From NCBI GenBank assembly GCA_018823885.1, contig JAHJHG010000001.1, positions 108,645 through 172,644 on the forward strand: a stretch of 64,000 nucleotides of DNA, written 5' to 3'. How positions within the stretch are numbered: position 1 is the first letter of the stretch; every line of letters begins with the position of its first letter. The stretch comes from Patescibacteria group bacterium (GTDB lineage: Bacteria; Patescibacteriota; Microgenomatia; UBA8517). Under the pieces are notes generated by a model. It searched no databases, was not told the origin of the DNA, and worked only from the letters and a program-made list of their open reading frames with translations. Positions 47,973 to 64,000 of this stretch are shown here, piece by piece. The position numbers were made by a program, and so were the translations under genes.

Positions 47973-47978
47973 AGCTTG

Positions 47979-48875
47979 TTAGTCACTGATAAGTCTCCTG
48001 AAACGCCAAAGTTCTATAAATCTTAGGCCAACATACTTACCTACCAGGTAATCTATAGCGATAACTATTAATAACAATATTTCCGGATTAAGTAAGGCGA
48101 ATTCTTGCATTGGTTTTAGAGTTAAAAGAACATAGGAGGCGAGAGATAATATTAACGTTTCTGTAGCTAAATTAATGGCTGTCTTTGCGCTTTTACCTGC
48201 CTGGACTCTACTAAAGTCTTCTGCCAAAAGAACCAAAACAAGAACCGGGAAAATGGAGACATTAGTTAAATCAGGGTGCTGAATAATTGGGGTTGTAAAA
48301 AGCACGCCCAATACCCCGATGGCAACAAACCAAAGTAATAGTGCCATTTTAGGAAGATATTGGAGCTTAATCTTAAGTTTTCTCAAAGCCATTCTCGCTG
48401 CAGTGGAGATTGCCACAATCACTAAGAACAGAACTATTCCTACAATCGGCCCCGTAGCCACAAACACAATTGACAAAGCAGCTGGAAGAAAAATTCCAAA
48501 ACCTCGAATTCCAAGTAAATGCCTCGCCGATGCTATGGCTGCAGCCACCATGGGAAGCAATAATAATAAAACAATCGTATTCGGCGGCACTCCAGCCCCT
48601 ACGGCTCCCCTTATGGCATATTTTATTGGATTTGTTGGCCAAACAGGACCAAGCTCTTGCTCCTCTAAAAGCTTCTCAAGAGGACCAATGGTTTCTTCGG
48701 TAGGTTGGGTCAAATCGGGCCTAGGAGACGGACTAGGTTCAGCCTCAAGCCCTGCTGAAGGACTTGCTGTACCGATGGGAGAAAGGCCTTGAGCAAATAT
48801 ATTGGTCACCACGGCAAAGCTTAAAGCTGCCGCGGCCATAAAACTGATAAGAATACTTGCCTTGCGCATTGTCAT
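47979..48875 (-). CDS. polytopic membrane protein, possibly the 7TM partner of ATP-grasp/transglutaminase-type systems
   Basis: 298 aa. N-terminal signal plus Pro-rich spacer, then about 6–7 hydrophobic helices judged by eye. No soluble domain. Confidence 0.45.
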   Translation of the reverse strand: MTMRKASILISFMAAAALSFAVVTNIFAQGLSPIGTASPSAGLEAEPSPSPRPDLTQPTEETIGPLEKLLEEQELGPVWPTNPIKYAIRGAVGAGVPPNTIVLLLLLPMVAAAIASARHLLGIRGFGIFLPAALSIVFVATGPIVGIVLFLVIVAISTAARMALRKLKIKLQYLPKMALLLWFVAIGVLGVLFTTPIIQHPDLTNVSIFPVLVLVLLAEDFSRVQAGKSAKTAINLATETLILSLASYVLLTLKPMQEFALLNPEILLLIVIAIDYLVGKYVGLRFIELWRFRRLISD

Positions 48876-49015: not shown

Positions 49016-50320
49016 ATGTCCAAAAAGCATCCTTATAAAGAAATTGTTCTTCCTAATAAACTTCGAGTTCTTCTCTATCCCATGGATTCCGTTATGTCTG
49101 TTTATGCTGTTGTATATGTTCGAGTCGGAGCTATTTATGAGAAACAAAAGGAAAGAGGGATCTCGCATTTTACTGAGCACATGCCCTTCTTGGGCACAAA
49201 AGCGTTGCCCACCCCCCTTTCTCTTTCTCAAGCAGCCGACGAGATCGGAGCAAAATACAATGGAATAACAGGAAGATTTAAAACCGAATACTTGATTAAA
49301 TTACCCTATACAAATATAGGTAAGGGGGTAGATTTTCTTTATAATTTTGTATTTGAACCCCTAAATATAGGCAAAGATATTGAAAAAGAAAAAAACGTTA
49401 TTCTCTCTGAATATAATGATTTTTGGCATAATCCTGATAAAAAATTTAATCATGAATTTTGGAGAAAAAGATTTAAACAAAAAGAGCATCCTTACAGCTA
49501 TCGTGCCCTCGGAATACCCAGAACAATTAAGGCTTTTGAAAAAAATGACATTCTTCACTGGAGAGAACAGTACTATAACCCTGCTAATATGATTCTCTCA
49601 ATTGCTGGAAATATAAACGAGAAACAGTTGATTGAAAAACTCAAAACCACTTTTGGCAAAGAAAAAGCAGGAACAAAGAGAAAAGAACCAAAGTTTGGTT
49701 CAAATGATTATTCTAACTTTTCTGTCTTTCTACAAAATGAGCCTAGGCCGCAAATTAGATTTTTCGTAACATTTCCCGCTTTCGGCTACAAACAAGTATC
49801 TCGACAAAAAGAATTGCAATTAGAATTATTAAAAGACATTCTTGGAGGAAGTCCCTCTTCCCGCTTATATCATCGACTAAGAAGAAAAGAAAGATTTGTA
49901 TATAGTGCTGGATGTAATATGAATATCTATCCTTGGATGGGTGCTTTTTATGTTTGGGGTTCCGTGCCAGCAGAAAAGCTCCTTCCTACTATGAAGTCTA
50001 CTAAGCAAGAAATAGACAAAGTATTAAAAACTGGTGTTACTGAAAAAGAGATAAATCTGTCTAGAAAATACATGGCGGCAGCAAGATTAATGCACTTCGA
50101 TAGCCCCGAATCTGTCGCTTACTATTTCGCTAATCAGGTTTTCGATGAAGACAAAATATGGTTTCCTGAAAGGTATATTAAAGAAGCAGAAAAGGTCACC
50201 AAGGAGGAATTGAATAATTTAGCAAAAAAGATTTTTGACTATTCAAAAGTAAATATCTCACTCCTCGGAAATGTTCCAGATAAAACTTTGAAAGCGGTTG
50301 AGGAAATTTTCAAAGTGTAA
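49016..50320 (+). CDS. M16-family (pitrilysin/insulinase-like) zinc peptidase
   Basis: Inverted zinc motif HFTEH (HxxEH) near the N-terminus, 434 aa. Promoter-like TTGACA-17-TACGAT upstream. Confidence 0.75.
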   Translation: MSKKHPYKEIVLPNKLRVLLYPMDSVMSVYAVVYVRVGAIYEKQKERGISHFTEHMPFLGTKALPTPLSLSQAADEIGAKYNGITGRFKTEYLIKLPYTNIGKGVDFLYNFVFEPLNIGKDIEKEKNVILSEYNDFWHNPDKKFNHEFWRKRFKQKEHPYSYRALGIPRTIKAFEKNDILHWREQYYNPANMILSIAGNINEKQLIEKLKTTFGKEKAGTKRKEPKFGSNDYSNFSVFLQNEPRPQIRFFVTFPAFGYKQVSRQKELQLELLKDILGGSPSSRLYHRLRRKERFVYSAGCNMNIYPWMGAFYVWGSVPAEKLLPTMKSTKQEIDKVLKTGVTEKEINLSRKYMAAARLMHFDSPESVAYYFANQVFDEDKIWFPERYIKEAEKVTKEELNNLAKKIFDYSKVNISLLGNVPDKTLKAVEEIFKV

Positions 50321-50378
50321 TTTTATGGAGCCACTTCTTTCCAATTTAGTCTTTTGAAGGTAAAGTCTCTTGGGAAGG
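50321..50378 (+). repeat. copy A of a ~55-nt direct repeat (TTTTATGGAGCCACTTCTTTCCAATTTAGTCTTTTGAAGGTAAAGTCTCTTGGGAAGG)
   Basis: Aligned by eye with the copies at 53163-53220 and 58609-58666, about 80-85% identity, same orientation. Starts right after the M16 peptidase stop codon. Confidence 0.7.
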
Positions 50379-50565
50379 TTAGCTTCTATGCTATAGATAT
50401 TTTCTCCAACCAGATTTACTTAAAATCTCTGGTATTGAACCTTTTCGGTTTTTTGGCCAATTATGAAGGGGTTGTTGAGCGGGATAACCTTTCTCTTCAG
50501 GGTTAGTAAAAACGGTTAGCGCTTCTTTAAAGGTCGAAAATTACCCCAACTGGTATACTTAGCCC

Positions 50566-51525
50566 ATGATAGGCAAAAACTACTTGGCGACAAAAAAGGA
50601 TTTGGAGGCGATAAACGAAGCTTTGCGCTTTGTGTGGCATCCAAAAATGAAGTTTGTCTTCCAAGAAAAATCAAAAATTGCTAATACGGCTGTAATCTCC
50701 TACGACAGCAAGTTTATATATATATGGACACAAAAAGAATTAAAGGGAATTGACAAAATGCAAAGTGGCCACCCCAAGTATTTGTTTTACAAAATACCTC
50801 ATGCCCTAGAACTCAAAGAGAGGTGGCAATATACATGGCATGCAGACTTGTGGAAAAACATGGAAAAATTCCTTCCTGATCAGATAAAAAGAGAGAATTT
50901 GTTTGATATACCAAGGATTGGTGGAGGATTACTCACACCCTTTGTTGAACTTCAGAAGAAGAGAGGGTTCAAATATAATCCATATGTTACTGGCGAATCG
51001 TATCTCGCCACCATCATACATGAGTTCGGACACAACTACTGGAACCAACACAAACTCTGGTGGTACTCAAACAAAGAAAAAAACATTGAGTATCTAACAG
51101 CTGCAAAAAACCTGTATCAAAAAGGGGGGGGAAATCCTAACATACCTTTGCATATACCAACAAAAAGCGAGGTCGGTGAACTATTCGCGTTTTGCACAGA
51201 ATACTATGCAAGCTCCATCTTTTGGCCAACCCATAGGCAAGCCCTTGACATTTTTGGTAAATATCGATTAAAGGAATTAATAAGGGAGGAAAAAGGGAAA
51301 AATCTAGATAAGCAAGATTCTGTCCTTGAGCCGTCAAAGAACTTACATGACTTTTCCCTTGTTTTCGGCAAAATCATATTCGAGTGCCACCCTAAAAAGT
51401 GGCCTAGTTTTCTAACAAGTCCTCCTTACTTAGGAAGTCATTATGGCCTTGGCGGTCCTGGAGGCGGTGATGGACGACTGGGATTACACGGCTGGGGAGG
51501 TTCCCCAGAAGGCAGGCATGACTGA
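50566..51525 (+). CDS. hypothetical HExxH zinc-metallopeptidase-like protein with a Gly-rich C-terminal tail
   Basis: IIHEFGHNYW motif. Extended -10 (TGGTATACT) 7 nt before the ATG suggests a leaderless start. The last 85 bp overlap a convergent small ORF. Confidence 0.5.
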   Translation: MIGKNYLATKKDLEAINEALRFVWHPKMKFVFQEKSKIANTAVISYDSKFIYIWTQKELKGIDKMQSGHPKYLFYKIPHALELKERWQYTWHADLWKNMEKFLPDQIKRENLFDIPRIGGGLLTPFVELQKKRGFKYNPYVTGESYLATIIHEFGHNYWNQHKLWWYSNKEKNIEYLTAAKNLYQKGGGNPNIPLHIPTKSEVGELFAFCTEYYASSIFWPTHRQALDIFGKYRLKELIREEKGKNLDKQDSVLEPSKNLHDFSLVFGKIIFECHPKKWPSFLTSPPYLGSHYGLGGPGGGDGRLGLHGWGGSPEGRHD

Positions 51526-51635
51526 GCAGCAACTTTATTAGTATCTAAAGTTACCAGTTCAATTGTAGGCTCCTTGGATATCTCGCCGTCAACTTCTCCC
51601 ACCTGCTTAGCAAACGATAGCATTTCTTTTTGCAT
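51441..51635 (-). CDS. small Pro/Cys-rich peptide (64 aa), a candidate RiPP precursor downstream of the radical-SAM/SPASM gene
   Basis: Strong SD (GAAAGGGGG) 8 nt upstream of an ATG. The track start is a GTG three codons earlier. The C-terminus CLPSGEPPQPCNPSRPSPPPGPPRP is core-like. It is antisense to the Gly-rich tail of the HExxH ORF, so the coding strand is ambiguous. Confidence 0.35.
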   Translation of the reverse strand: MQKEMLSFAKQVGEVDGEISKEPTIELVTLDTNKVAAQSCLPSGEPPQPCNPSRPSPPPGPPRP

Positions 51636-51674
51636 TGTTTTCACCCCCTTTCTTCAAATTTGTCTTATTACTTA

Positions 51675-53108
51675 TTAATATTCTATTGGATGTGCGACTT
51701 CAACTCCTTGAGTTGCCACTACTTTTTTTATAAACGGCTCTAAGGTTTCATCATAATAAGGCTTTCCCTCTCCGTTTAATCTCCAGGCCCCCTTTGCCCA
51801 CTCACCTCTATATGGATTGTATGTACATCTGGGATAAGGAGCAGAAAAATATTCACCCTGATTCTGATTAGCTCCTTCCGCAAGGGGTCGACAATCAAAA
51901 CAAGCATATCTATACTCACAGTCCTGACAAACCAATACATTATCTTTTGTATTTCTCCAAACAGTTTCGAGTTTTTGCCCTAAAACTATTTCTCTAAGAG
52001 CCACTTCCAAAGCATTACCGACTATTAAGTCTCTCGAAAAAATACATGGCAATACATTTCCATTATCAGTAATAGTTATTTTGCCTTGTAGACATGAATG
52101 TCCAGAAGTATTTCTAGAGAAAATATCTTTTGAGATTGTAAAATTTGGTGACATCATAAGGCTATATTTCACGATAGATTTCTTAGTTGGCATTATCGAT
52201 GGATTGTCTCCTCTTCCTTTTGGTCTCAAAACGTCTGGTTGCTTATGGGAAAACCCCATTTCTTCTACAAGTTCCTGAGTTTGCTTGATTGTCTGTTCAT
52301 TTGGACTCATTAATACCGTCTCAACTCTTACGGGCACACCAACTTCTTTTAGAAATTTTAAAGCTTCTATTGTTTTTCTGAAACTACCTGGGGTTTTTGT
52401 AATTGAATCATGTAGTTTTTCATCATTTGAATAAAGCGAAGTGGCAACATTTATACCAAGTGCTTTAATTCTTTGAATTTTTTTTGGCGTAAGCATTGTT
52501 GCATTCGTAAAAATTTCAATATATTCATATCCAACATTTTTAGAATATTCTGCAAGATCAAAAACTGTTTCTCCATTTTCTCCCTTATATAGAAGTGGCT
52601 CGCCACCAATAAACTGACATCTTCTACATCCCAAATAGTAAGATTCATCAATAAACTCTTTCCATTTCTCAAAGGAAACCCCCTTATTGTTTTCGAAACT
52701 CTGTTTGGAATGCAAGTTTCTTTCTTTTGAGATACCCATTGCTTTTTGGTACGTGGGTGGCATACATTCCGCATAGCAGTGAATACAACTTTCGTTGCAA
52801 TCATTTGAAACAATCTCGAACCACACAAATTGAAGAGAGGGGCTTCGCATAAGTTCTTGCAACATACTTCTTCGATTGCTTTTTTCCTGGGTTACTAAAT
52901 CCATGGTTTCAAGCTTTTTCCAAAACCCTAAATTTTTAGTTACACCAATCAAAATGTCGCAAGCCGAGTGGTTTATTGAATAAATTCTGGAGGAATTTAC
53001 ATCATAAATTGCTCCTCTTAGTACTCCAGGGACAAAGAAAACACCATCTTTAAATATATGCTCACCTGAGGATAAATGTTCTTTAATATCCAGGCCACGT
53101 TCTTTCAT
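51675..53108 (-). CDS. radical SAM enzyme with a C-terminal SPASM domain (peptide-maturase type)
   Basis: CNESCIHC (CxxxCxxC) cluster. The C-terminal Cys-rich region (...C.DCEYRYACFDC...C) is SPASM-like. The track start at 53186 is a TTG inside repeat B. The start was reassigned to the ATG at 53108, which is preceded by a perfect TTGACA-17-TATATT promoter at 53119-53147 on the minus strand. Confidence 0.8.
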   Translation of the reverse strand: MKERGLDIKEHLSSGEHIFKDGVFFVPGVLRGAIYDVNSSRIYSINHSACDILIGVTKNLGFWKKLETMDLVTQEKSNRRSMLQELMRSPSLQFVWFEIVSNDCNESCIHCYAECMPPTYQKAMGISKERNLHSKQSFENNKGVSFEKWKEFIDESYYLGCRRCQFIGGEPLLYKGENGETVFDLAEYSKNVGYEYIEIFTNATMLTPKKIQRIKALGINVATSLYSNDEKLHDSITKTPGSFRKTIEALKFLKEVGVPVRVETVLMSPNEQTIKQTQELVEEMGFSHKQPDVLRPKGRGDNPSIMPTKKSIVKYSLMMSPNFTISKDIFSRNTSGHSCLQGKITITDNGNVLPCIFSRDLIVGNALEVALREIVLGQKLETVWRNTKDNVLVCQDCEYRYACFDCRPLAEGANQNQGEYFSAPYPRCTYNPYRGEWAKGAWRLNGEGKPYYDETLEPFIKKVVATQGVEVAHPIEY

Positions 53109-53162
53109 GTTTGCACAGAATATAGGATAAAAACATAAAATTGTCAAATAATGAACACGCGC

Positions 53163-53220
53163 TTCTACGGAGCCACTTCTTTCCAATTTAGCCTCTTGAA
53201 GGTAAGATCTCTGGAGGAAG
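53163..53220 (+). repeat. copy B of the ~55-nt direct repeat
   Basis: CTACGGAGCCACTTCTTTCCAATTTAGCCTCTTGAAGGTAAGATCTCTGGAGGAAG. Lies between the rSAM promoter and the NUDIX gene stop. Confidence 0.7.
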
Positions 53221-53295
53221 AAAGGAAGGGGATATTGGATTTTTCCAGAAAGTGGTTATATACGAAGGTGTTCTTGATCCTTGTAAAAAATGCTT

Positions 53296-53757
53296 TTACT
53301 CTATCTCTTTAATGTATTCCCCCTCTTTAGGAAATCCGTTATTGAAATCTACCAATAACTTCGGAGACAATGTTTTTGGTAATAGATTGTCTGATAAATT
53401 ATCAATATCAAGCCAAGTCAACCAAACTGATCCGTCGGGGTGTTCCGGATCTTTTAAACCATCTAGTTTGTCAGTTTTGTTTATACTTCCCAAAATAAAT
53501 AATTCCACACTGTGTTCATTCTCATCAGGTCTAATAAAATCACGGATGTAGAGCATTTTCTGAAAATCAAACTTAACCTTATCTCCACATTCTTCCCTTA
53601 CTTCTCTTGCACAAGCATCCTCTACAGTTTCTCCATATTCCAAATGGCCTCCGATATAATGATAAAAATCACCCTTTTCTCTGTATTGAACAAGAACTTT
53701 CCTGTTATGGATTATTACCAACCTTACCCGAACGTTAATTATATTTTCAGTTTTCAT
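53296..53757 (-). CDS. NUDIX hydrolase
   Basis: Nudix box GGHLEYGETVEDACAREVREECG. Confidence 0.8.
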   Translation of the reverse strand: MKTENIINVRVRLVIIHNRKVLVQYREKGDFYHYIGGHLEYGETVEDACAREVREECGDKVKFDFQKMLYIRDFIRPDENEHSVELFILGSINKTDKLDGLKDPEHPDGSVWLTWLDIDNLSDNLLPKTLSPKLLVDFNNGFPKEGEYIKEIE

Positions 53758-53888
53758 TTATTTATAGTTATTATAAATCTTTTTGTGTTTGTTTTCATTC
53801 CTTTGAGTGCATCGTATTTTTTATAAACCTTTCTAATATCTTAAAGTTTTTTTATAATGTCTCTTTTGGAATGTTATAAATGTAAAAA

Positions 53889-55118
53889 TTAGTTAAATTC
53901 TAATCCCAACTCTCTCGCTTGTTTCAAATTAAAGTTTAATCTCTTAACCCATCTTTTAGAGGGACTAGAAAAAACACGTGTCGATTTAAAAATATTTGCC
54001 AACTTATATGAGTAGTTCTTATTCAAGAATTTCCCCTTTGCTGTATCAAAGCCGCATATTGCAATATTTTCTCTTAATTTTGAATTTGTCATAACCAACT
54101 CAATTTTACTAGCTAAATCTTCATAGTTTCCATGAGTATACAAAAAGCCATTTTTCTCATGTTTTATTATTTCCGAAACTCCGCCGCCATCGGCAGCAAT
54201 AACAGGTTTTTTGAATAACATCCCTTCTAAAATCGTTCTTCCAAAAGCTTCATTTTTTGAGCAAACAAGAACAGCGTCACATTGTTGAAACAACGGATAG
54301 GGATTTTCAATAAAATCTCTAACCTGAAAGCGCCATTTTTTCCCACTCTGATCAATCAAATTATGAATTTTTTTCATGAAAACGTCGTCAGTACACCTAC
54401 CAAGGATTAGCAATTCAACATCCAGTTTTCTGACTAGTAATAACGATGTTGCTCTAATAATATCCAGCTGTCCTTTTTTTTTAGAAATTGTTCCCGCTAT
54501 TAATAACTTAAAAGCGTTGGGGTAATTAAATGTGACCGGTAATTTTTTTATAAAAAGCTTTCTGTTAATTCTAATTGAGTTATAAACTACAGTAGATTTT
54601 GATCTTAAAATGTACTTACCAAATTCCTTCATTACAGCTTTAGAGTTAAATATAACCCTAGATGAAAAGTCATTAATAAATTTAGCAGTGAAAGCAAAGC
54701 CAAACTCGAATATAAAACCATGATCCTTCTCGCCTAATTCTCTAACATACCATATGTGAGGAACCCTTAACATATTGGCTACCAGTGCTCCTATGCAAAT
54801 CGTACTGGTGTTTGTTACCACCAAATCGGGGTGAAATTTCTCAATTTTGTTTTTCAGTCTCTTCGCACTATCTAAATGAGTATAAAAAAAGGTATTTACT
54901 GGTCTCCTGCTTTCTCCTCTGCGCACAGTCCACCACTTATATGGATGAATAATCCAATTTATTCTTGCTCTTGTAAGTTTGACGCCAAGTGCCCCATCAG
55001 ACGGAAGAACTACGCACAATCGCATCTTGGGAATTTTTTTTAGTGTTTCAAGCAAATAAAGCAAAGAACGCTCTGCACCTCCTAAATTGCTACTATGCGA
55101 AATAAAACAAATTTTCAT
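53889..55118 (-). CDS. glycosyltransferase family 4 (GT-B, GT1-type)
   Basis: MKICFISHSSNLGGAERSLL N-terminus. C-terminal E..G..ILE.M....PVIA motif region. Confidence 0.8.
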   Translation of the reverse strand: MKICFISHSSNLGGAERSLLYLLETLKKIPKMRLCVVLPSDGALGVKLTRARINWIIHPYKWWTVRRGESRRPVNTFFYTHLDSAKRLKNKIEKFHPDLVVTNTSTICIGALVANMLRVPHIWYVRELGEKDHGFIFEFGFAFTAKFINDFSSRVIFNSKAVMKEFGKYILRSKSTVVYNSIRINRKLFIKKLPVTFNYPNAFKLLIAGTISKKKGQLDIIRATSLLLVRKLDVELLILGRCTDDVFMKKIHNLIDQSGKKWRFQVRDFIENPYPLFQQCDAVLVCSKNEAFGRTILEGMLFKKPVIAADGGGVSEIIKHEKNGFLYTHGNYEDLASKIELVMTNSKLRENIAICGFDTAKGKFLNKNYSYKLANIFKSTRVFSSPSKRWVKRLNFNLKQARELGLEFN

Positions 55119-55123
55119 GTAAT

Positions 55124-56890
55124 TTAGAAAGTTTTTAGTTTTAAAAGTTTATTCATAGGTGTGTTTTTTTCGAAAAAATTAAACCATAAAACGATATCAA
55201 GGATGGTACTAATCCTATTTATTTTTAAATTCATTTTTGCATCGTTGATAATTTTTCTCTTCCTTAAAAAAGGTGGAAAATCTAAGCGATTTAATAAATC
55301 AAACAGATATCTCGCGTCATTTTTAGAGATTTCAGAATAGTCGCTTATTAACTCTCTTGGGTTTTCATTAAATTGCATAATTCTTTGGTCATAAGCTCTC
55401 AATTTCTCCAAATTTTCATCGCTTGTTGACCTAATTTGCTTAACTTCAGGAAATGCTGTGTCGATTATTCGTCTATAAATAAACTTAAATTTGTAATCAT
55501 GTTGAATGCTTAGGCCAAATGTAATTAGTTTGTCGTTGAAAAATGGCTGTATTACTGTTTTCAAACAACTTCCAATAATATTACTAGGTGTTATGCTGAT
55601 TCCATTTCTAATTCGGTTTTTCATTAGAAAAACTACCATTCGATTTTCAGTCGTAGGTATATTATTCAATTCATCAACGACCCAGTCTTCTTTGTATTTA
55701 ATACTCTTCCAAACCTCAGGGTTTAAATAATCTTCGAGCCAAGAATATTCAAATCCAAACTGCTTTCTAAAAAGTTTAGCTAGATAGCGTGAATTCGCTT
55801 TCATTTGAATATGTATTGGGCGCACTCGAGTAGAGCGCATTATTATGTCTCCTCCAATACCATCAATATAAGTATCATATTTTTTGATCGTTTCCAGCAT
55901 CGGCATCGTCCATAAATGTTCTTGCACTAAACAGTCGCTCAAGTAAGCTTTCATAACAAAAAAACGTTCGTAAATATCGGCAGGTCTATCAATATAAATA
56001 CTATTTATCCCCAAAGCATTAGATAGTTCGCATACAATGTCTTTCTCTGAACCGCAAGGATGGAGTGTGGTTATCGTGTCAAAATCAGATTGGTTAGAAA
56101 ACTTTTTGAGACCAGCCACAATACACCGGGAATCATACCCTCCAGAGAGAGCAGTTATCGATTTCGATCCTTCAATGGTTTTTCCCAAATCACTAAAAAC
56201 CTTTCTAAATATTTCTACACCCTCTGAGGTTTTTTGTTCGTAGCTGGAGTTATAATCAATATCAATTTGCGAAAAATCCCAATACTTTTCCTGTCTAACA
56301 CTAATAGCATCTCTGTAGGATATCTTAACTAAAGTTCCATTTGATATTAAGCGAATATCTTTGTAAAAAGTTTCTTCACCTAACGTAAATCTAAAAGTTA
56401 AATATTCCCCCCACGCTTTCCAGTTTATGGGTGGTTTCCTATCTAATAAAGGTATTAGCAACTTTACTTCAGATCCGAAGGCAAAACCATCAGCACATCT
56501 GCATACGAAAAGGGGTCGAGAACCATATTTGTCAGTTATTATAAAAATTAGTTGTTTTTTCTTATCTATTAATAAAAGATTAAAGGATCCATTAATCTTT
56601 TTGACAAAATTAATAGAATGTTTTTTGTTATACAAGCTTATTATGTGACTTGCAGTTTTTTCTGCTTTAGGCTTATCAAAAAGATTTCCTTGAAAAACAA
56701 CAATCAAATTTTCGTCTTCAGCTATACAATCATCAATTGGGGCCAAACCACAGACTGATATTTTATAATTATTATCTTTAAAATATCTAAGATTTTTGTA
56801 ATAACTTTCAACACCTGCTGGAAGTATTCCTGTAAAACTCAAGTTGTTTCGTGATAAGTTTTTGCCTATCCTTCCAAAGATTTTAAGCAT
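55124..56890 (-). CDS. asparagine synthetase-like amidotransferase (AsnB family) lacking the N-terminal Cys nucleophile
   Basis: PP-loop SGGYDSR and the AsnB synthetase domain are present. The N-terminus is MLKIFG rather than MCG. Confidence 0.75.
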   Translation of the reverse strand: MLKIFGRIGKNLSRNNLSFTGILPAGVESYYKNLRYFKDNNYKISVCGLAPIDDCIAEDENLIVVFQGNLFDKPKAEKTASHIISLYNKKHSINFVKKINGSFNLLLIDKKKQLIFIITDKYGSRPLFVCRCADGFAFGSEVKLLIPLLDRKPPINWKAWGEYLTFRFTLGEETFYKDIRLISNGTLVKISYRDAISVRQEKYWDFSQIDIDYNSSYEQKTSEGVEIFRKVFSDLGKTIEGSKSITALSGGYDSRCIVAGLKKFSNQSDFDTITTLHPCGSEKDIVCELSNALGINSIYIDRPADIYERFFVMKAYLSDCLVQEHLWTMPMLETIKKYDTYIDGIGGDIIMRSTRVRPIHIQMKANSRYLAKLFRKQFGFEYSWLEDYLNPEVWKSIKYKEDWVVDELNNIPTTENRMVVFLMKNRIRNGISITPSNIIGSCLKTVIQPFFNDKLITFGLSIQHDYKFKFIYRRIIDTAFPEVKQIRSTSDENLEKLRAYDQRIMQFNENPRELISDYSEISKNDARYLFDLLNRLDFPPFLRKRKIINDAKMNLKINRISTILDIVLWFNFFEKNTPMNKLLKLKTF

Positions 56891-58461: not shown

Positions 58462-58608
58462 ATGCAAATAATGAAAGCGGCAATATATAATCCGTATTTA
58501 GACACCTTGGGTGGTGGCGAGCGCTATACGGTGGCAGTTGCTACAACCTTGAAAAAGAACGGTTATTTAGTCGATACTGAATGGAAAGATTCTTCAATAA
58601 AAAGTCTA
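58462..58608 (+). pseudogene. 5' fragment (about 48 codons) of a GT-B glycosyltransferase gene, truncated at repeat copy C
   Basis: The N-terminus MQIMKAAIYNPYLDTLGGGERYTVAVATTLKKNGYLVD looks like a glycosyltransferase start. Recognisable sequence stops where the repeat begins, and the remaining ORF is repeat-derived or antisense sequence. Confidence 0.5.
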
Positions 58609-58666
58609 TTTTATGGAGCCACTTCTTTCCACCTTAACCTTTTGAAGGTGAGGTCTCTGGGGAAAG
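58609..58666 (+). repeat. copy C of the ~55-nt direct repeat
   Basis: TTTTATGGAGCCACTTCTTTCCACCTTAACCTTTTGAAGGTGAGGTCTCTGGGGAAAG. Coincides with the glycosyltransferase truncation point and with the stop of the 723-aa minus-strand gene. Confidence 0.7.
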
Positions 58667-60782
58667 TTAAAACAAAGTCTGGAGCAAATTCGAAAACTTC
58701 CGCCGGCTCATCAGCATTATCACCCAATAGATCTCTCTCTAAGACTACCCCGCCATATGCAGCCACCATTCCTCTAACATGTAATTGGTTACTTCCCGCT
58801 CCTGTTCTGAATTGGCCTTCTGACAAAAATACTCCCTCTATTTCTACCGCAACTGGGTGAGAAACATTTGCATCAATAGAGATATTTCCTTTGTTTCCAC
58901 TATCGTCCTTGCCCACAATAAACATTATGAATCCTGTGCCATCAACAACATTAATTCTGTCATTGATATATAAATCTGCATTTTCCACTAAAACAACCAC
59001 TTTTCTAGTTCCTGGCATATTTATACTATTACTTATTGTTAAATCGCCCCAAGTATTGCCGTCAAAGTGATACCAAACATAACCCCTTGAAGGTGCTCCT
59101 CCCGAAGTAAAGAATCCTCCATTGACAGAAGCTTGTTCAATCTCTGTTAAGCTTACTTCAACATCTGAACGTACCATTTTTCTAAAGAAATTGTAGTCAT
59201 ATATTTTACTAAACAAGCTCTGAGTATTAGCAAGCCAGCCAGTTGAAGAAACACCTCCTTCTCCAAAATTTGCAGTAGAGCCACCATAAATAGGAACACC
59301 AGGATAACCGCCAAGTCCCTCTAAACCAAAGAGTGGGTTGCACCCAGGCAAGGCACAACTTGAAGGAATTGAAGAAATTATATCCCCACTTGTAATAACA
59401 TCCGCGTCTATCACCTGCCACCATGGACCGGGGGCAGTAACATTAAGAATAGCCGTATCAGTACATCTCTGTGCACCACCCATTATTACATTTGAAGTAA
59501 TTGTTGAACTACCAACAGCAAGTGTTTCCCCAACTGTTTGGTATGGTTGGGTGGTATCTGATGCCGGATTTACGGTTGATACGGCGGTATTGCTCGAAGA
59601 AAAATTCACCTGACCTACAATACCAGCTCCAATTGTAACCGTAGCTATATAATTCGCGTTTGTACCTATAGCCACACTTACAGTAGAAGGGTCTAAGCTA
59701 GCTGTGCATGAAGGGGTGGGGGTAGGTGTTGCTGCACATGCAGCGTCATCAACACACCTTGACTCAGCAGCACACCCAGGAGGAGAACATGTGCGCGTTT
59801 GTAATCTTTCATTACTAGGACAAGAACCCCCTCCACATGCACCATTTACCCAACTACCACAACCACACGTCCAATAGCAGCTTCCATATCTGGTCTCACA
59901 AGTATCAATTCCACAACCGGGAGCATAGCAGGACGTGCCACTAACTCTGCATTCTCTATTAAAAGCCCAAACACAATCTTTTACATAAACACATGTTCCA
60001 AGACACTCCCACCTTTTTAGAAAGATATCATAATAACAATTACAATCTGCTCCATATGTGCTACAGCCCGATCCGTTTGAACTACACTCAAGCCACCATT
60101 CGTTAACAAAACACTGCGTTCCCGTTCCCGTACATGATTGAGCCATCACCGTTTTTATGGGCCTAAACTTCCCTATAAAAAGAGCGGTCTTTTTTTTACC
60201 TAATTCAATAAATTCAAATTTATTATTAACTACTTCCTGCTGAATCTTTATTAACTCCTCTGATAGCTTATCTGGTTCTAAATCTCCGTTCGAAATTATG
60301 AACAGCCCCTCAACAAAATAGGAACTCACTATCGTATTAACACTTGCACCTCCTCCGCTCAACTCAGAAAGTTTGGGATTTATATAAAGAAAAAGTTCAT
60401 ATGTCTCGCTATCCTCATCATACGCTCCCCAAAAACCTCTTAATACCGTCCTTTCACCGCCATCAGTAGGCGTAACTATTTTGAGGACGGGCTGCTCTTC
60501 ATTTGTTAAGATAATTTTTATCTTTTCAGTGAAGTTTATTTGTTTGTCTTCAAAATTCATTACCCCACTTGCCATAATTCTATCTAGTATCCCTTTTTCC
60601 AATAAATATGTTTCTAGGGCTTCTTTGTCTTTAATTCGAAGTTCTAAATTGTCCTGCTGTGATTGAGTTTTAATGTATATGTTGCCTATTTTCTGACTTT
60701 TGTTGGCTCTATAAAGAAGAGTAATTTCAACAACCACGACAGCAAGAAGAATAAATAATATAATATAGAGCAGTTTTCTCAC
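58611..60782 (-). CDS. large secreted/surface protein with an extremely Cys-rich module
   Basis: 723 aa. Signal anchor (LLYIILFILLAVVVV). About 35 Cys within roughly 150 residues (...CTGTGTQCFVNEWWLECSSNGSGCSTYGADCNCYY...CGCGSWVNGACGGGSCP...), then a PTPTPS linker and Gly/Ser/Thr-rich repeats. Confidence 0.55.
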   Translation of the reverse strand: MRKLLYIILFILLAVVVVEITLLYRANKSQKIGNIYIKTQSQQDNLELRIKDKEALETYLLEKGILDRIMASGVMNFEDKQINFTEKIKIILTNEEQPVLKIVTPTDGGERTVLRGFWGAYDEDSETYELFLYINPKLSELSGGGASVNTIVSSYFVEGLFIISNGDLEPDKLSEELIKIQQEVVNNKFEFIELGKKKTALFIGKFRPIKTVMAQSCTGTGTQCFVNEWWLECSSNGSGCSTYGADCNCYYDIFLKRWECLGTCVYVKDCVWAFNRECRVSGTSCYAPGCGIDTCETRYGSCYWTCGCGSWVNGACGGGSCPSNERLQTRTCSPPGCAAESRCVDDAACAATPTPTPSCTASLDPSTVSVAIGTNANYIATVTIGAGIVGQVNFSSSNTAVSTVNPASDTTQPYQTVGETLAVGSSTITSNVIMGGAQRCTDTAILNVTAPGPWWQVIDADVITSGDIISSIPSSCALPGCNPLFGLEGLGGYPGVPIYGGSTANFGEGGVSSTGWLANTQSLFSKIYDYNFFRKMVRSDVEVSLTEIEQASVNGGFFTSGGAPSRGYVWYHFDGNTWGDLTISNSINMPGTRKVVVLVENADLYINDRINVVDGTGFIMFIVGKDDSGNKGNISIDANVSHPVAVEIEGVFLSEGQFRTGAGSNQLHVRGMVAAYGGVVLERDLLGDNADEPAEVFEFAPDFVLTFPRDLTFKRLRWKEVAP

Positions 60783-60822
60783 TAAAGTCAGTTTATGTCG
60801 GAACCATAAAATCTGTCAATCT

Positions 60823-62718
60823 TCATCTAATATCCCCATACTTTATCAATTCATATTTGCCCGCCATCTCTTCTTCTGTGGGAAATTCATTTACATGTAT
60901 AAATATTTGCCACACGGTATAATGGCCGTCCTCGGCCATTGTATTAGTTGTTGAAATAATCGAACCTCTTTTAAGACCAAACTCCTCCTGCAGCTCTCTC
61001 ATTGTCCAAGTCGACAAATGCGGACTAGATGTACCACTCTTGAGAATATAGCGTTCTTCCGCTTTACCAAACTCATTAATATACCTTAAACCAAGAAGGC
61101 CTGATTCGGTTGGTGGCGATGCAGGTCTGGTAGAAATAAATGCCTCAGGGTTTTGTTCCGGTGTTAAATCACTTCCAGGCTTGATTTGTAATACTAAATA
61201 TCCCAATCCCGAATCCACGAAACCATAAAAAAAGCCCACATCTTGCTGGCTTGAAGGAAGAGGATAATTCCAAACCTCAGAGCCTAAGCCACGAATATCC
61301 ATGCCAGAGTCTTTGTGCCATGGGTTGATTGCCCACCAGGTATCAAAATATGCCCTGTAAAGCTCAATCAGATCTGGATAATCGGAAACACCCATAAGTG
61401 AAATCAATTCTTCTGCTTTCCCCTCATATGATGTTATTTCTGTTAATGGCGCCATACCTTGCGGTCCTGAATAAGGAGTAAATTTAGACACATCCACTAT
61501 ATTAAGTTTCTGCAACAGTTCACTGTTCATCCTAATCACCAAACTCTCTGGTTGAACTAGTGGGGGCATTTCGGGTAATTCTTCTGTTGGTGTTGCTTCA
61601 GGAGTAACAATCTCAAAAAAGGCTGTGGGGTCGGCAAAACCTTCATCTGTTAACAAACCCTTTAGTGGGCTTATATGTCTATCTGTGGGAGACATTATAA
61701 TTTTCCATTCTCCGCCAGATTTGATTTTAAACTCCCCTGTTTTTAGTCTCTGAACCAGAGATCCTTGGGTAATTAAGTTTCCGGTTTCAGGATCAAATCC
61801 ATATCCCAGAAACTCATATTTGAGAAGATTGTTTACTCCACTAGGGTTCTCATTTCTTACCAAGAGGATAACTGAATTGACAGAGCCATCTTTGTTTAAA
61901 CGTATTAGTAAAGGCAGATTCTTTTCTTCGCCTGTTTCTTTGTTTTTGAAAACTGAAGTGGCAAAATTAAATATCTCTCCGCCTTCTATGCTCACAACGT
62001 TGCCTACTTCTTTTACTTCAGAGATGCCTAATTCCGTATATTCTTTGTTTAAATAATCTTGTATTGCCGTACTCATTTCATCTTCTGCTCCCGCAATAGG
62101 CATAATTTCTGTAGGAATCTGAGTTACTTCTGTGGCCACAGGCCCTATTCCCTGGACAGCCTCAGGAGTTCTGGGAGTAACGGTTGTTCCACAGGCAGCA
62201 GCGGCCAGAGAAAGGGCAAGAATGCCCATTTTCTTTTCCACTGGGGTCTTACCGAAAACTCTTTCTCCTTTAATTAGTTTTTCTGATTGTTTATGGAGTT
62301 TTGAAATTGTTCTGTCCAGATTAAAACCGCCATATCTGACTTGGTCGGGAATATGCTCTGAGTTTCTTATAATTCTAAATCTGGCTTCGGCTTCAGCCAG
62401 GGAGGCCAGTTGAACACTGCGGGAAGCGGTTTTCAAAGCCTCTTTTCTTTCTGGAACTTTAATATCAGAACTGATGGAGAATCTTGTTTGGGAAGGGGTG
62501 GTTACTTTAAGTTCAATTCTTGTCTCTTCAGTCTTTTCAACCAAGGGCGCCAGCTGATCAGGTGAGGAAAGAATCCCCTTGAAGCCCTCTATCTTCCCTT
62601 TCGGTAAAATCATCCTCTGAGAAAGTTCTCTGACGTATTCCTCAAGGCTATTGGTAACAACAACCTTTGCTTTCCTCTCAGAAGCTGTTTTTACTTCAGA
62701 CATTCTTTCTACTCTCAT
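60823..62718 (-). CDS. large hypothetical protein with an internal signal/lipobox-like segment (start uncertain)
   Basis: 631-aa ORF. A ...MGILALSLAAAACG... segment at residues ~165-178 looks like a lipoprotein-type signal. The true start may be this internal Met. Confidence 0.45.
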   Translation of the reverse strand: MRVERMSEVKTASERKAKVVVTNSLEEYVRELSQRMILPKGKIEGFKGILSSPDQLAPLVEKTEETRIELKVTTPSQTRFSISSDIKVPERKEALKTASRSVQLASLAEAEARFRIIRNSEHIPDQVRYGGFNLDRTISKLHKQSEKLIKGERVFGKTPVEKKMGILALSLAAAACGTTVTPRTPEAVQGIGPVATEVTQIPTEIMPIAGAEDEMSTAIQDYLNKEYTELGISEVKEVGNVVSIEGGEIFNFATSVFKNKETGEEKNLPLLIRLNKDGSVNSVILLVRNENPSGVNNLLKYEFLGYGFDPETGNLITQGSLVQRLKTGEFKIKSGGEWKIIMSPTDRHISPLKGLLTDEGFADPTAFFEIVTPEATPTEELPEMPPLVQPESLVIRMNSELLQKLNIVDVSKFTPYSGPQGMAPLTEITSYEGKAEELISLMGVSDYPDLIELYRAYFDTWWAINPWHKDSGMDIRGLGSEVWNYPLPSSQQDVGFFYGFVDSGLGYLVLQIKPGSDLTPEQNPEAFISTRPASPPTESGLLGLRYINEFGKAEERYILKSGTSSPHLSTWTMRELQEEFGLKRGSIISTTNTMAEDGHYTVWQIFIHVNEFPTEEEMAGKYELIKYGDIR

Positions 62719-63202: not shown

Positions 63203-64000
63203 ATGAAACTTGATCAAGGCAAAAGCATGTCTCCTTTAATTTTACCAAACGATAAAATTATCGTCGCTAAAACCTCGTCTTTAAAAGTTAATGACATTGT
63301 CGTCTTTAAAAAAGAAAAGCGCTTAATCGCCCACAGATTAATCTATATTTCACCATCAAAAGATTTTCTTGTAACTAAAGGTGACAACAACCTCAAATCG
63401 GATGGAAAAATAAAGCCCAGTCAAATTCTGGGCAAGGTTAATTTCATCAAAAGAAATGGAGAGACTATTAAATTATCCCACATTTATCTGTCCCAATCTT
63501 CAGCCTATCTTCAAGAGCTAATAAAAATCAATAAAGCTCTTGACCAAAAACACATTCCATATATTTTTTTGAAAGGACTCCCCTTGCACCTGCATTTTGG
63601 TCAAACTTTCCCAAAAAGATTATATTTGGACGCAGACATTCTTACTAATAGAACATCTTCAACACAGGTCGACAAAGTCCTGGTTAGCTTTGGGTTTAAG
63701 AAACAAAAACGCACCCTCTTTGATAAAAAAAATACGGAGTCAACACAGATTTCTTATCTTAAAGAAACTAAACCCTTCCCGGTAATTATTGATTTACACC
63801 TCGAACCCGCCATTGGCTTTACTAAACTTAAAAGCATTAATAAACTGTTGCCGTCAACAAAGCAATTTGCCCAATATCTTTTCAAAAATATCCAGATAAT
63901 CAAACTAGACAAGAGAAGCTTCCCAATCCTTAACACCGAAACATTAATTCTCTACCTTTTCCTGCATCTTTATCATCACAACTTCCATGGCGCCCACAGA
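63203..64000 (+). CDS. protein with an N-terminal signal-peptidase-I/LexA-like (S26/S24) fold, partial (continues past the window end)
   Basis: ...GKSMSPLILPNDKIIV... (SMxPTL-like) and ...KGDNNLKSDGKIKPSQILGKV... (GDNRxxSxDSR-like) motifs. No stop before position 64000. Confidence 0.45.
   Translation, partial: MKLDQGKSMSPLILPNDKIIVAKTSSLKVNDIVVFKKEKRLIAHRLIYISPSKDFLVTKGDNNLKSDGKIKPSQILGKVNFIKRNGETIKLSHIYLSQSSAYLQELIKINKALDQKHIPYIFLKGLPLHLHFGQTFPKRLYLDADILTNRTSSTQVDKVLVSFGFKKQKRTLFDKKNTESTQISYLKETKPFPVIIDLHLEPAIGFTKLKSINKLLPSTKQFAQYLFKNIQIIKLDKRSFPILNTETLILYLFLHLYHHNFHGAHR

Follow-up and report, generated by a model that had tools for sequence, protein, structure and literature searches.

A candidate cell-surface gene pair of Microgenomatia with a constant β-solenoid and exchangeable cysteine-rich heads

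Introduction

The prevailing view of CPR bacteria is that they live attached to hosts, and type IV pilus machinery is abundant in them. To our knowledge, the surface molecules by which they attach are almost entirely unknown. Several described systems resemble parts of the two proteins analysed here. The IBP-1 fold, a β-solenoid, is that of the DUF3494 ice-binding proteins (e.g. Colwellia, 3WP9, and Shewanella SfIBP_1, 6BG8, which combines Big_2 with DUF3494). In ComZ of Thermus thermophilus and in the choice-of-anchor A (pAdhesive_15) domains the solenoid is used for binding or adhesion, with no ice context; ComZ is the pilus-tip DNA receptor of Thermus. Big_2 domains are found in intimin/invasin, LigB and SbsC. 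The thrombospondin type-1 repeat (TSR), of about 45–55 residues with six cysteines, is regarded as a eukaryotic domain and serves in host attachment in the adhesins of apicomplexan parasites. Lipoproteins of the Lgt/LspA pathway carry a signal that ends in a lipobox, [LVI][ASTVI][GAS]C.

Results and discussion

The window is the whole stretch of DNA that was analysed, 64,000 nt of contig JAHJHG010000001.1 from a Patescibacteria group bacterium. Two open reading frames, on the same strand and 40 nt apart, were followed up:

58611..60782, minus strand: gene for a 723-aa modular surface protein, KKH23_01775 (ORF with GTG start; stop codon 58611–58613)
60823..62718, minus strand: gene for its 631-aa partner, KKH23_01780 (ORF and homologues; the NCBI start is Met6)

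Both are real genes, presumably co-transcribed. Their products are 100% identical to KKH23_01775 and KKH23_01780, each listed by NCBI as a hypothetical protein of a Patescibacteria group bacterium, and the source names of the matches bear out the CPR origin assumed in a preliminary description of this DNA. The larger protein has 46 homologues including the identical NCBI entry (45 others), and the partner has nine. That description allowed that the frames might be antisense artefacts, to be judged by codon periodicity. Chance or antisense frames are refuted by the NCBI identity, by conservation of residues and, domain by domain, of the 46 and 9 homologues, by the high-confidence folds of the models and by the synteny of related loci, and the antisense idea also by the codon-position base composition of both frames, which is coding-like and close to that of the other long ORFs of the window. 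Such an origin has negligible probability. Neither protein is "giant", as had been stated, the sizes being only 723 and 631 aa. Short antisense ORFs lie opposite the two genes on the plus strand, at 59338–59613 and 62132–62413.

The pair is found repeatedly across Microgenomatia. The partner gene is immediately upstream of the β-solenoid gene in loci L001 and L003; a partner-like lipoprotein gene is directly upstream in L005, and in L006 and L007 the partner is upstream with one or two genes for small TM proteins intervening. Promoter and terminator scans around the pair were uninformative. Genes for glycopolymer functions (Bac_transf, Wzy_C, WecG, LytR_cpsA_psr) recur nearby, and next to the cassette, at 63212–64000, is a gene for an S24/S26-like peptidase.

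The 723-aa protein is divided as follows, from N- to C-terminus:

60711..60773, minus strand: hydrophobic membrane anchor, residues 4–24, LLYIILFILLAVVVVEITLLY (Kyte–Doolittle and model)
60171..60710, minus strand: juxtamembrane region, residues 25–204, about 180 aa (pLDDT < 50)
60135..60170, minus strand: signal-peptidase-like (AxA) junction, residues 205–216, KFRPIKTVMA/QS (slash, putative cut)
59868..60134, minus strand: cysteine-rich sub-module 1, residues 217–305, 14 Cys (Cys positions; pLDDT < 50)
59736..59867, minus strand: TSR-like module, residues 306–349, 44 aa, 8 Cys, CGCGSWVNGACGGGSCPSNERLQTRTCSPPGCAAESRCVDDAAC
59709..59735, minus strand: Pro/Thr linker, residues 350–358 (read from the sequence)
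59436..59708, minus strand: bacterial Ig-like (Big_2-type) domain, residues 359–449, with the pair C359–C440
58641..59435, minus strand: family-defining β-solenoid, residues 450–714, IBP-1/ComZ-like fold, with the loop disulfide C476–C481
58614..58640, minus strand: flexible C-terminal tail, residues 715–723, KRLRWKEVAP (pLDDT < 50)

Export or anchoring signals were found in both proteins, as had been proposed. In the larger one the Kyte–Doolittle 19-residue maximum, 2.98, is at residue 4, and residues 2–25 were modelled as a helix. The juxtamembrane region gave no match in a Pfam scan and is shared, by pairwise phmmer, only with homologues P0002, P0005, P0023, P0036, P0044 and P0142. It is followed by VMA/QSC, which looks like a relic signal-peptidase site and may be cleaved; the first five of these homologues have an equivalent A-x-A/(Q/R)-x-C junction, and in P0046 and P0040 AQSC comes straight after the signal peptide. 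Most of the family (40 of 46 members) has a signal peptide only, and at 16 or more of 24 genomic loci the gene directly upstream of such members encodes a small protein with a TM anchor. These small proteins, together with the fused N-terminus seen here, fit a membrane anchor at the N-terminal end that is either split or fused; no homology was detected between the fused region and these small proteins that stand alone.

The segment that follows is as strikingly cysteine-rich as the preliminary description claimed, although its count of about 35 in roughly 150 residues was too high: there are 23 in the 143 residues from 217 to 359 (16%, against 0.85% for the long ORFs of the window) and 26 in the whole protein. 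Cysteine spacings are 2, 4–9 and 11. Of the motifs reported earlier, CxC occurs twice and CGCG once (residues 306–309), and no pair has CxxC spacing. Structure prediction was only partly informative, the last 44 residues of the segment being modelled confidently and the 14-Cys sub-module not. Homologues of this sub-module at hand were limited to P0023 (E 4e-19) and P0030 (E 9e-7). The suggested likeness to EGF, granulin or knottin folds found no match for the segment.

The pattern of cysteines favours disulfides rather than metal binding, which had also been suggested. The cysteine count is even in 39 of the 46 family members (p about 9e-7) and cysteines are lost pairwise: C476/C481 and C359/C440 are present or absent together among relatives, as are C3/C27 and C16/C38 across 249 units of the 44-aa module. 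With even counts, pairwise loss and no histidine in the module, the cysteine-rich part behaves like an extracellular module held by disulfides. An MdbA-like thiol-disulfide oxidoreductase, with VKOR adjacent, is reportedly enriched in CPR genomes (bioRxiv 10.1101/335083). A metallothionein- or zinc-ribbon-like cluster, or a redox module, would account for the high cysteine density, and one 44-aa unit has a marginal Pfam match to yeast metallothionein (E 0.35). That match is far under the Pfam 25-bit cutoff, however, and the module lacks CxxC as well as histidine, sits downstream of an export signal and has, in its 44-aa part, a confident β-strand fold. Metal binding is thus unlikely, and a metal or redox module can scarcely be credited.

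The 44-aa unit is found in at least 204 protein clusters, with 1–8 copies per protein, and is matched by no curated library; it co-occurs with the extracellular domains PKD, Ig, dockerin, CARDB, GH25, LamG-type and T4SS pilin. Its nearest solved fold, by a weak match, is the three-stranded TSR. As modelled, the unit is in the TSR size range and has three antiparallel strands. A conserved Trp (W6, kept in 244 of 249 units) immediately precedes strand I, and R-x-Q-x-R alternates along strand II with a spacing to the next Cys exactly that of R-x-R-x-C in TSRs; R25 is kept in 242 and Q23 in 200 of the 249 units. In TSRs, which are elongated, the Trp of strand I stacks with Arg of strand II between capping cysteine layers, and the bottom disulfides join strands I and III; W6 and the strand II arginines may stack likewise. 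Cysteine layers would cap both ends, with C16–C38 linking the I–II loop to strand III and C3–C27 tying the top of strand II to the N-terminus, and the N-terminal Cys would be bonded across the top as in the CCN/spondin subtype (C1–C4 top disulfide, few Trp layers).

The unit differs from TSRs in having eight cysteines and four disulfides instead of six cysteines, in its single Trp, and in its distribution, which takes in CPR bacteria and proteins labelled as coming from DPANN archaea but no eukaryotes. The TSP1-clan Pfam families TSP_1, TSP1_spondin, TSP1_CCN and TSP1_ADAMTS gave no match at E up to 10 to the module or to a single or triple unit, hhalign of 128 units against seven PDB-verified TSRs returned a probability of 2%, and the unit profile had zero matches among PDB sequences. 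Homology to TSRs thus stands unproven, with convergence just as possible. A fuller proposal would make the unit a genuine prokaryotic TSR relative, shared between CPR and DPANN, two radiations of ultra-small episymbionts (probably by horizontal transfer), and forming in both the stalks or binding surfaces of host-attachment proteins; the cassette would be one of swappable heads, and its lipoprotein partner would either release or keep a conserved cytoplasmic domain. We consider it improbable, although worth stating.

The reported PT linker is present (ATPTPTPS at residues 350–357), and most family members have a PT-rich linker at the equivalent place. The Gly/Ser/Thr-rich repeats that had been claimed to follow it are not there; the region consists of a folded Ig-like domain and the β-solenoid, and Tandem Repeats Finder returned only trivial arrays. 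The Ig-like domain belongs with Big_2 (PF02368) by the family HMM, matched in 25 of the 46 members, and by its Ig-like β-sandwich, supported by fold matches; the best in Foldseek are to domains of SbsC, an S-layer protein. It is the only part of the protein matched by any curated family. Unlike Big_2 of intimin/invasin, LigB and SbsC, the window copy is below Pfam detection and has a conserved intradomain Cys pair.

The family is defined by its C-terminal β-solenoid, not by the cysteine-rich head. Comparison with P0003 reveals a mosaic, 238 of 273 solenoid positions being identical and the heads unrelated; heads are swapped wholesale between close relatives. In the tail, W718, E720, A722 and P723 are each conserved in at least 90% of the 46 members.

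The fold raises the possibility of a true DUF3494 ice-binding or antifreeze domain. With limits of E 0.01 for the 46 members and E 10 for the window domain alone, however, Pfam Ice_binding (PF11999) gave no match, and the family profile found no ice-binding protein among PDB sequences. Residues 450–723 lack the ice-binding motif T-A/G-x-T/N (as defined in published text), the long flanking helix appears to be missing (the longest helix in the domain has seven residues), and the domain ends in the conserved WxEVAP tail. The fold is also known from adhesive domains that do not bind ice. An ice-binding function is very remote.

One face of the solenoid is covered by loops and not by a long helix, as in ComZ and choice-of-anchor A. 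Scans of the whole 723-aa protein against Pfam and NCBIfam gave no pAdhesive_15 (PF20597) or choice-of-anchor match. A ComZ-like pilus-tip or competence receptor on type IV pili, for instance for DNA, would agree with the apparent lack of the flanking helix, a feature that separates ComZ from ice-binding proteins (PMC6561018), and a PilM_2 gene is found about 4 kb downstream in L005. Against this, the class III (prepilin) signal G/FTLxE (slash, cut; G/F/M-T-L-x-E sought) is missing throughout the family, a pilin-like domain is absent, unlike in ComZ, and pilin genes are not consistently adjacent in related loci. The closest structural relative of ComZ is itself an ice-binding protein (PMC6561018), so the match to ComZ reflects a shared fold. 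Such a receptor is very unlikely.

The 631-aa partner has three parts:

62236..62718, minus strand: conserved hydrophilic N-terminal extension, residues 1–161 (homologue identity, profile matches)
62191..62235, minus strand: internal lipoprotein-type signal, residues 162–176, KK-MGILALSLAAAA-C (sequence)
60826..62190, minus strand: P/T-rich linker and variable ectodomain, residues 177–631 (homologue comparison)

The extension, presumed to be cytoplasmic, has 82–88% identity to its counterparts in five close homologues and 33% to the one in the L006 homologue; its profile matches L006 (E 5e-18) and L007 (E 5e-6) and it has no match in Pfam or PDB. The internal lipobox-like signal noted earlier is present. 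As in lipoproteins of the Lgt/LspA pathway, a basic n-region (KK) and a 12-residue h-region lead to an invariant Cys, C176, the sole Cys of the protein, with a P/T-rich linker beyond. The lipobox fits the consensus except at position −3, which is Ala in place of Leu/Val/Ile, and the signal begins, unlike those of such lipoproteins, at residue 162, behind a translated and conserved extension. Of 16 proteins encoded upstream in related loci, 12 likewise have an internal hydrophobic segment that ends in Cys. From its sequence the partner is predicted to be lipidated and cleaved. Residues 177–631 are unrelated in seven homologues that have the extension in common, and the ectodomain is shared with P0048, whose extension differs.

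The explanation that we favour, tentatively and with slightly less than even confidence, is that the pair is a conserved cell-surface cassette of Microgenomatia, a fibril and a lipoprotein partner through which the bacterium attaches to a host cell or surface or recognises it. The surface or host-interaction role proposed earlier stands as the best reading, and one that we infer. The N-terminal helix of the 723-aa protein would insert in the membrane and an extracellular fibril project outward, running from the juxtamembrane region through the cysteine-rich head or stalk, the PT hinge and the Ig-like spacer to a distal triangular β-solenoid. About 11 disulfides, in the 14-Cys domain and the four-disulfide, three-stranded TSR-like module, would make the stalk rigid. 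The solenoid, with the fold of ice-binding proteins, choice-of-anchor-A adhesive domains and pilus-tip ComZ, and the invariant WxEVAP tail may carry a constant function (binding of a conserved ligand or partner), while exchange of heads between close relatives may tune specificity or evade recognition. The 631-aa partner would be exported by its internal signal and place a second exchangeable ectodomain beside the fibril, its extension remaining on the cytoplasmic side. Being cytoplasmic on this view, the conserved part of the partner cannot be what the solenoid binds, which counts against the explanation.

Usually it is the anchor, not the tip, that is most conserved. As 40 of the 46 members carry a cleavable signal peptide alone and need some other attachment, the solenoid could instead be a cell-proximal docking domain. 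The polarity would then be reversed: solenoid and tail would dock non-covalently to the wall or a glycopolymer, in the manner of S-layer and wall-associated proteins; the hypervariable head would face outward and diversify; and in the 723-aa protein cleavage at VMA/QSC would take off the N-terminal TM region as a pro-region. The C-terminal position of the constant part with exchanged heads, the AxA-type junction kept in all fused forms, the recurrent glycopolymer genes, the SbsC matches of the Ig domain and the adjoining peptidase gene all agree with this. No known wall-binding domain (SLH, LysM, CWB) was detected in the C-terminal domain, however, the hydrophobic stretch ahead of VMA/QSC is weak for a signal peptide, and the small TM proteins directly upstream, apparently fused to the head end, argue that this end is membrane-proximal. 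We regard the reversed arrangement as rather unlikely, though it merits serious weight, and keep to an outward-projecting solenoid.

Conclusions

The locus provides a defined, recurrent Microgenomatia cassette in which a constant β-solenoid is combined with exchangeable disulfide-rich heads. The partner stands for a class of lipoprotein-like proteins in which a long N-terminal extension is conserved. The 44-aa unit, a widespread extracellular domain, is confidently modelled, its disulfide connectivity is partly resolved, and it is a candidate for the domain databases; if its likeness to the TSR is true, it would bear on where that domain, regarded as eukaryotic, came from.

Results and discussion

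Two open reading frames on the minus strand, separated by 40 nt, had been picked out in the preliminary description as adjacent genes.

58611-60782, minus strand: gene for the 723-aa protein, GTG start
60823-62718, minus strand: gene for the 631-aa partner; the NCBI start is Met6

The first product has a 100% identical entry at NCBI, 'hypothetical protein KKH23_01775 [Patescibacteria group bacterium]' (214-kb contig), and 45 further homologues were found for it. The second is KKH23_01780, with 8 further homologues. The codon-position base composition and position-1 purine bias of both ORFs were similar to those of the other long ORFs in the window. Given this composition, the NCBI-identical proteins and the homologues, both genes are genuine and an artefact is unlikely. 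Promoter and terminator scans gave the same counts as shuffled sequence, and no tandem DNA repeats of note were seen at the locus. Neither protein had a significant match in Pfam, NCBIfam or PHROGs; marginal matches to Cas_VVA1548, Hemocyanin_C and yeast metallothionein were far under the cutoff and were dismissed. A phage origin was also rejected, as there was no PHROG match and the cassette formed by the two genes had no relatives among 2.9 million viral contigs.

The layout of the 723-aa protein was derived from an alignment of the 46 family members (A1) and an AlphaFold2 model.

Residues 4-24: strong hydrophobic helix
Residues 25-204: region common to just six relatives, pLDDT below 50
Residues 205-216: junction KFRPIKTVMA|QSC
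Residues 217-305: 14-Cys domain, no confident model
Residues 306-349: 8-Cys, 44-residue unit
Residues 350-358: PT linker
Residues 450-714: beta-rich domain, model mostly at pLDDT above 90
Residues 715-723 (window 58614-58640): flexible tail ending W-K-E-V-A-P

Of its 26 cysteines the protein has 23 within residues 217-359, where they make up 16% of 143 positions; for long ORFs across the window the Cys frequency is 0.85%. The original observation of a gene pair with a Cys-rich module is therefore real but overstated: the richness stands, while the figure of about 35 cysteines in roughly 150 residues has to be lowered to these counts. Of the spacings that had been listed, CxC occurs twice, CGCG once and CxxC not at all. 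A PT linker comes next (residues 350-357), and what had been taken for Gly/Ser/Thr-rich repeats proved to be folded domains, with no tandem DNA repeat of note.

The Cys count is even in 39 of 46 members (one-sided binomial p = 9e-7). The other seven comprise truncated proteins, proteins with a signal-peptide Cys, proteins with a Hint domain and proteins that differ in other ways. C359 and C440 of the Ig domain occur together in 45/46 members, and C476/C481 of the C-terminal domain occur as a pair in 34, are missing as a pair in 11 and are split in one. These even counts and paired presences and absences imply that the 26 cysteines of the window protein divide 14 + 8 + 2 + 2, and the cysteines are predicted to be disulfide partners. 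CPR genomes are reportedly enriched in an MdbA-like thiol-disulfide oxidoreductase, often adjoining VKOR (bioRxiv 10.1101/335083), which would be a plausible oxidising machinery for such disulfides. A Cys cluster of this density could instead bind metal, as had been suggested. The even and paired cysteines, the plausible oxidising machinery and the lack of any His in the Cys-rich segment make this unlikely. The comparison with EGF or granulin modules was not right either, but the general description of a disulfide-rich surface protein of a CPR cell was broadly correct, with its function a matter of inference.

For the 14-Cys domain, P0023 and P0030 are the sole homologues among the proteins collected. 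A further hit, P0084, is a Cys-poor repeat protein that matches the junction residues only, and was discarded as a false positive.

Residues 205-360 were used as the query in an exhaustive search of 1.84 billion cluster representatives (E up to 1e-3). At least 204 proteins were found, nearly all of which match query positions about 100-150 only, that is, the 44-residue unit. By HMM, 161 of 195 collected proteins contain the unit, with 292 copies in total (1 to 8 per protein) and the consensus C-[ST]-C-x-x-W-x-N-x-x-C-G-x-G-x-C-x(4)-R-x-Q-T-R-x-C-x-P-x-G-C-x(5)-C-V-x-D-x-x-C. It accompanies the C-terminal domain of the family in just 11 of 149 representatives. When 60 other unit proteins were scanned, the unit was joined to PKD, Ig, dockerin, CARDB, GH25, GH113, nuclease, VWD, PG_binding_1 and T4SS-pilin domains, and no Pfam family was common to more than four of them. 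No family for the unit came from scanning it directly against Pfam, or from scanning the whole protein against NCBIfam, so it is matched by no curated model.

Among 249 full-length units, Cys 3 and Cys 27 (profile positions) were jointly absent 27 times, against single losses of 2 and 6, and Cys 16 and Cys 38 were jointly absent 27 times, against single losses of 0 and 2. Because of this joint loss, C3-C27 and C16-C38 are taken as established disulfides. In the same set C11 and C44 never vary, and C1 and C32 hardly do; for these four a nested C1-C32 with C11-C44 pairing is proposed. The unit was modelled with three strands at a mean pLDDT of 91.2 (128-sequence alignment). One Trp is conserved, one of the strands has the pattern R-x-Q-x-R, and a Cys at the N-terminus is bonded to strand II at its top. 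From the model and these features the unit would work like a thrombospondin type-1 repeat (TSR), as a small, rigid, layered, disulfide-stapled three-stranded module; this likeness does not establish family membership, which was rejected by sequence (Pfam scans of the unit, profile against PDB, hhalign).

Twenty unit-bearing representatives were looked up, and four clusters had informative source names: Candidatus Paceibacterota (CPR), 'Pacearchaeota', Woesearchaeota and Nanoarchaeota. Both CPR bacteria and bins labelled as DPANN archaea thus seem to have the unit. It is seen in the large proteins P0145 (residues 1963-2006), P0163 (residues 252-340) and P0207, labelled Woesearchaeota, Nanoarchaeota and Pacearchaeota; as P0207 is at least 90% identical to a Paceibacterota-labelled protein, some of the labels may be wrong.

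The C-terminal domain is the family-defining part. It had no relative in Pfam, NCBIfam or the PDB sequences, even with the family profile, and membership of the ice-binding, choice-of-anchor or pilin families was rejected by sequence. Its predicted fold is a beta-solenoid like that of ice-binding proteins (IBPs). The closest structural relative of ComZ, a Thermus pilus-tip protein, is reported to be an ice-binding protein (PMC6561018). A ComZ-like role is unlikely here since no family member has a prepilin signal. Ice binding is likewise unlikely: in contrast to ice-binding proteins the domain has no T-A/G-x-T/N motif, its longest helix is 7 residues, and no family match was obtained. The choice-of-anchor-A/pAdhesive_15 adhesive domains have the same fold and do not bind ice (bioRxiv 10.1101/2023.03.06.531300). 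The domain is accordingly filed as a new sequence-orphan family with a predicted IBP-like adhesive solenoid fold, and not as a member of DUF3494.

W718, E720, A722 and P723 of the tail are each kept in at least 90% of members, and no TM segment follows. The tail, W-x-E-V-A-P-COOH, was modelled as disordered and resembles a short docking or recognition peptide; to our knowledge there is no sorting signal of this form.

N-terminal to the linker the pattern is different. The C-terminal domain is 73-87% identical to its closest relatives and the Ig domain 61-76% in most, whereas unrelated Cys-rich heads are substituted among these same relatives; against P0003, 238/273 residues of the C-terminal domain are identical and the head is unrelated. 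PA14, GBS Bsp-like, fn3 and Hint domains occur as heads elsewhere in the family. The Hint/PT-HINT autoprocessing domain of P0038 (744 aa) lies in the variable head, ahead of fn3, Ig and the beta-solenoid; in polymorphic toxins the order is usually the opposite. Judged by sequence, the family has a constant C-terminal body and exchangeable heads.

The partner has a single Cys, C176, which closes an internal lipoprotein-type signal, KK-MGILALSLAAAA-C, and is a putative lipidation site. Its first ~175 residues, which comprise an N-extension with no Pfam or PDB relative, are common to 7 of the 8 other homologues; in five aligned close homologues they are 82-88% identical and the Cys is invariant. 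Beyond the P/T linker, homologues sharing this N-extension have unrelated ectodomains. Since N-extension and ectodomain are shared separately, the partner is modular, its parts meeting at the lipobox and linker, and appears to combine a constant N-extension with exchangeable ectodomains. P0048 retains the ectodomain (46% identity) behind a different, shorter N-extension and its own ...SMVSAC signal. Set against window 60823-62718, it indicates separate evolutionary histories for the two parts and hence recombination at the lipobox and linker.

The large upstream protein in 12 of 16 related loci has a comparable short, hydrophobic internal segment; it ends in Cys, lies 45-275 residues from the start and precedes a P/T/S-rich stretch. 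The internal lipobox-like signal noted for the 631-aa protein is thus not only present but a family-wide trait. Pfam scans of ten partner-class proteins from other loci gave one LysM, one TAT signal and nothing else. The TAT signal (locus L020, 2485-4290; residues 45-65) ends in a lipobox (RRDFLKAAGVIAGSTALAAC), so at least one member of the class may use Tat export.

Gene order was then compared between loci. The partner gene directly precedes the beta-solenoid gene at L001 and L003, and a lipoprotein-like gene does so at L005. At L004 and L006 the beta-solenoid gene is preceded by a partner-like gene, whose product at L006 matches the partner N-extension profile (E 5e-18), and two small TM-anchored proteins. 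One genome per GTDB species was scanned with a profile from 6 sequences. This gave 28 loci, located in bins of Microgenomates, Woesebacteria, Microgenomatus and 'Patescibacteria group', with also two partial matches from Chloroflexi and the same cassette in several MAGs titled 'uncultured Gammaproteobacteria bacterium' (L008, L009, L016, L018, L021, L023, L024, L026 and L027). The cassette of these MAGs is of the Microgenomatia type (34-56% identity in the C-terminal domain), and their titles probably misstate the taxonomy.

Of the 24 loci with a complete gene, at least 16 encode a protein of 149-276 aa with an N-terminal TM helix immediately before a signal-peptide-only family member; this protein is usually preceded by the large partner-class protein. 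Sequence divergence prevents alignment of these small proteins, both among themselves and with the N-terminal region of the window protein. The first 200 residues of the window protein could be a fused copy of one of them, but no homology was found beyond the TM helix (hmmsearch, phmmer, hhalign). The junction form AxA|(Q/R)xC is retained in every relative with a long N-terminus, and in P0046 and P0040 it comes straight after an ordinary signal peptide. A putative fusion of a 'small anchor' to a 'secreted fibril' has its support in gene position and the retained AxA junction.

The cassette is tentatively read as a Microgenomatia surface attachment or recognition system, its function being inferred. 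The 723-aa protein would be a fibril held in the membrane, with a stalk and head stapled by disulfides, then an Ig spacer and, distally, an adhesive solenoid of IBP-like fold; a variable partner with a lipid anchor would go with it. The main rival reverses this polarity: the conserved solenoid and tail would dock to a glycopolymer or the cell wall, and the variable head would face outward. Most family members carry a signal peptide only, and glycopolymer genes (Bac_transf, Wzy_C, WecG, LytR_cpsA_psr) recur nearby, which favours the reversed arrangement; it is considered the less likely of the two.

Several other features of the window lie near the cassette.

58462-58860, plus strand: ORF whose start resembles that of a family-4 glycosyltransferase (MQIMKAAIYNPYLDTLGGGERYT...) and which, from about 50 codons on, is antisense to the 3' end of the 723-aa gene
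63212-64000, plus strand: divergent ORF running off the window, a peptidase-like N-terminus fused to an NTP_transf_5 nucleotidyltransferase domain
45772-48875, minus strand: three genes (7TM_transglut, ATPgrasp_ST, RimK-like ATP-grasp) at a distance of about 10 kb from the cassette
49016-56890: M16 peptidase, radical SAM/SPASM protein, NUDIX, a GT4 and a 588-aa ORF, asparagine synthase-like by eye

The first resembles what is left of a truncated glycosyltransferase gene, where the sugar-modification locus ends. The N-terminus of the second is of S24/S26 type (GKSMSPL...KGDNN; Pfam Peptidase_S24, E 2.7e-5; NTP_transf_5, E 2e-17), and any link between this peptidase and the AxA junction is pure speculation. 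An NTP_transf_5 gene is likewise divergent and upstream of the cassette at L004, where PqqD adjoins it. Genes for 7TM_transglut and ATPgrasp_ST lie just downstream of family members at L003 (3206-5401) and L004 (10181-13284), the latter with the RimK-like gene too. The 49016-56890 set and the PqqD/NTP_transf_5 pair of L004 are reminiscent of peptide-maturation (RiPP or lasso-like) clusters.

Conclusions

The analysis adds a widespread TSR-like module, unmatched in the curated libraries scanned and with its disulfide connectivity partly resolved. It also adds an orphan domain family of predicted IBP fold whose C-terminal tail is invariant, and an N-terminally extended lipoprotein-like class. 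They come together in a new, conserved and mosaic gene cassette, and this mosaic pattern is what is expected for surface molecules under diversifying selection.
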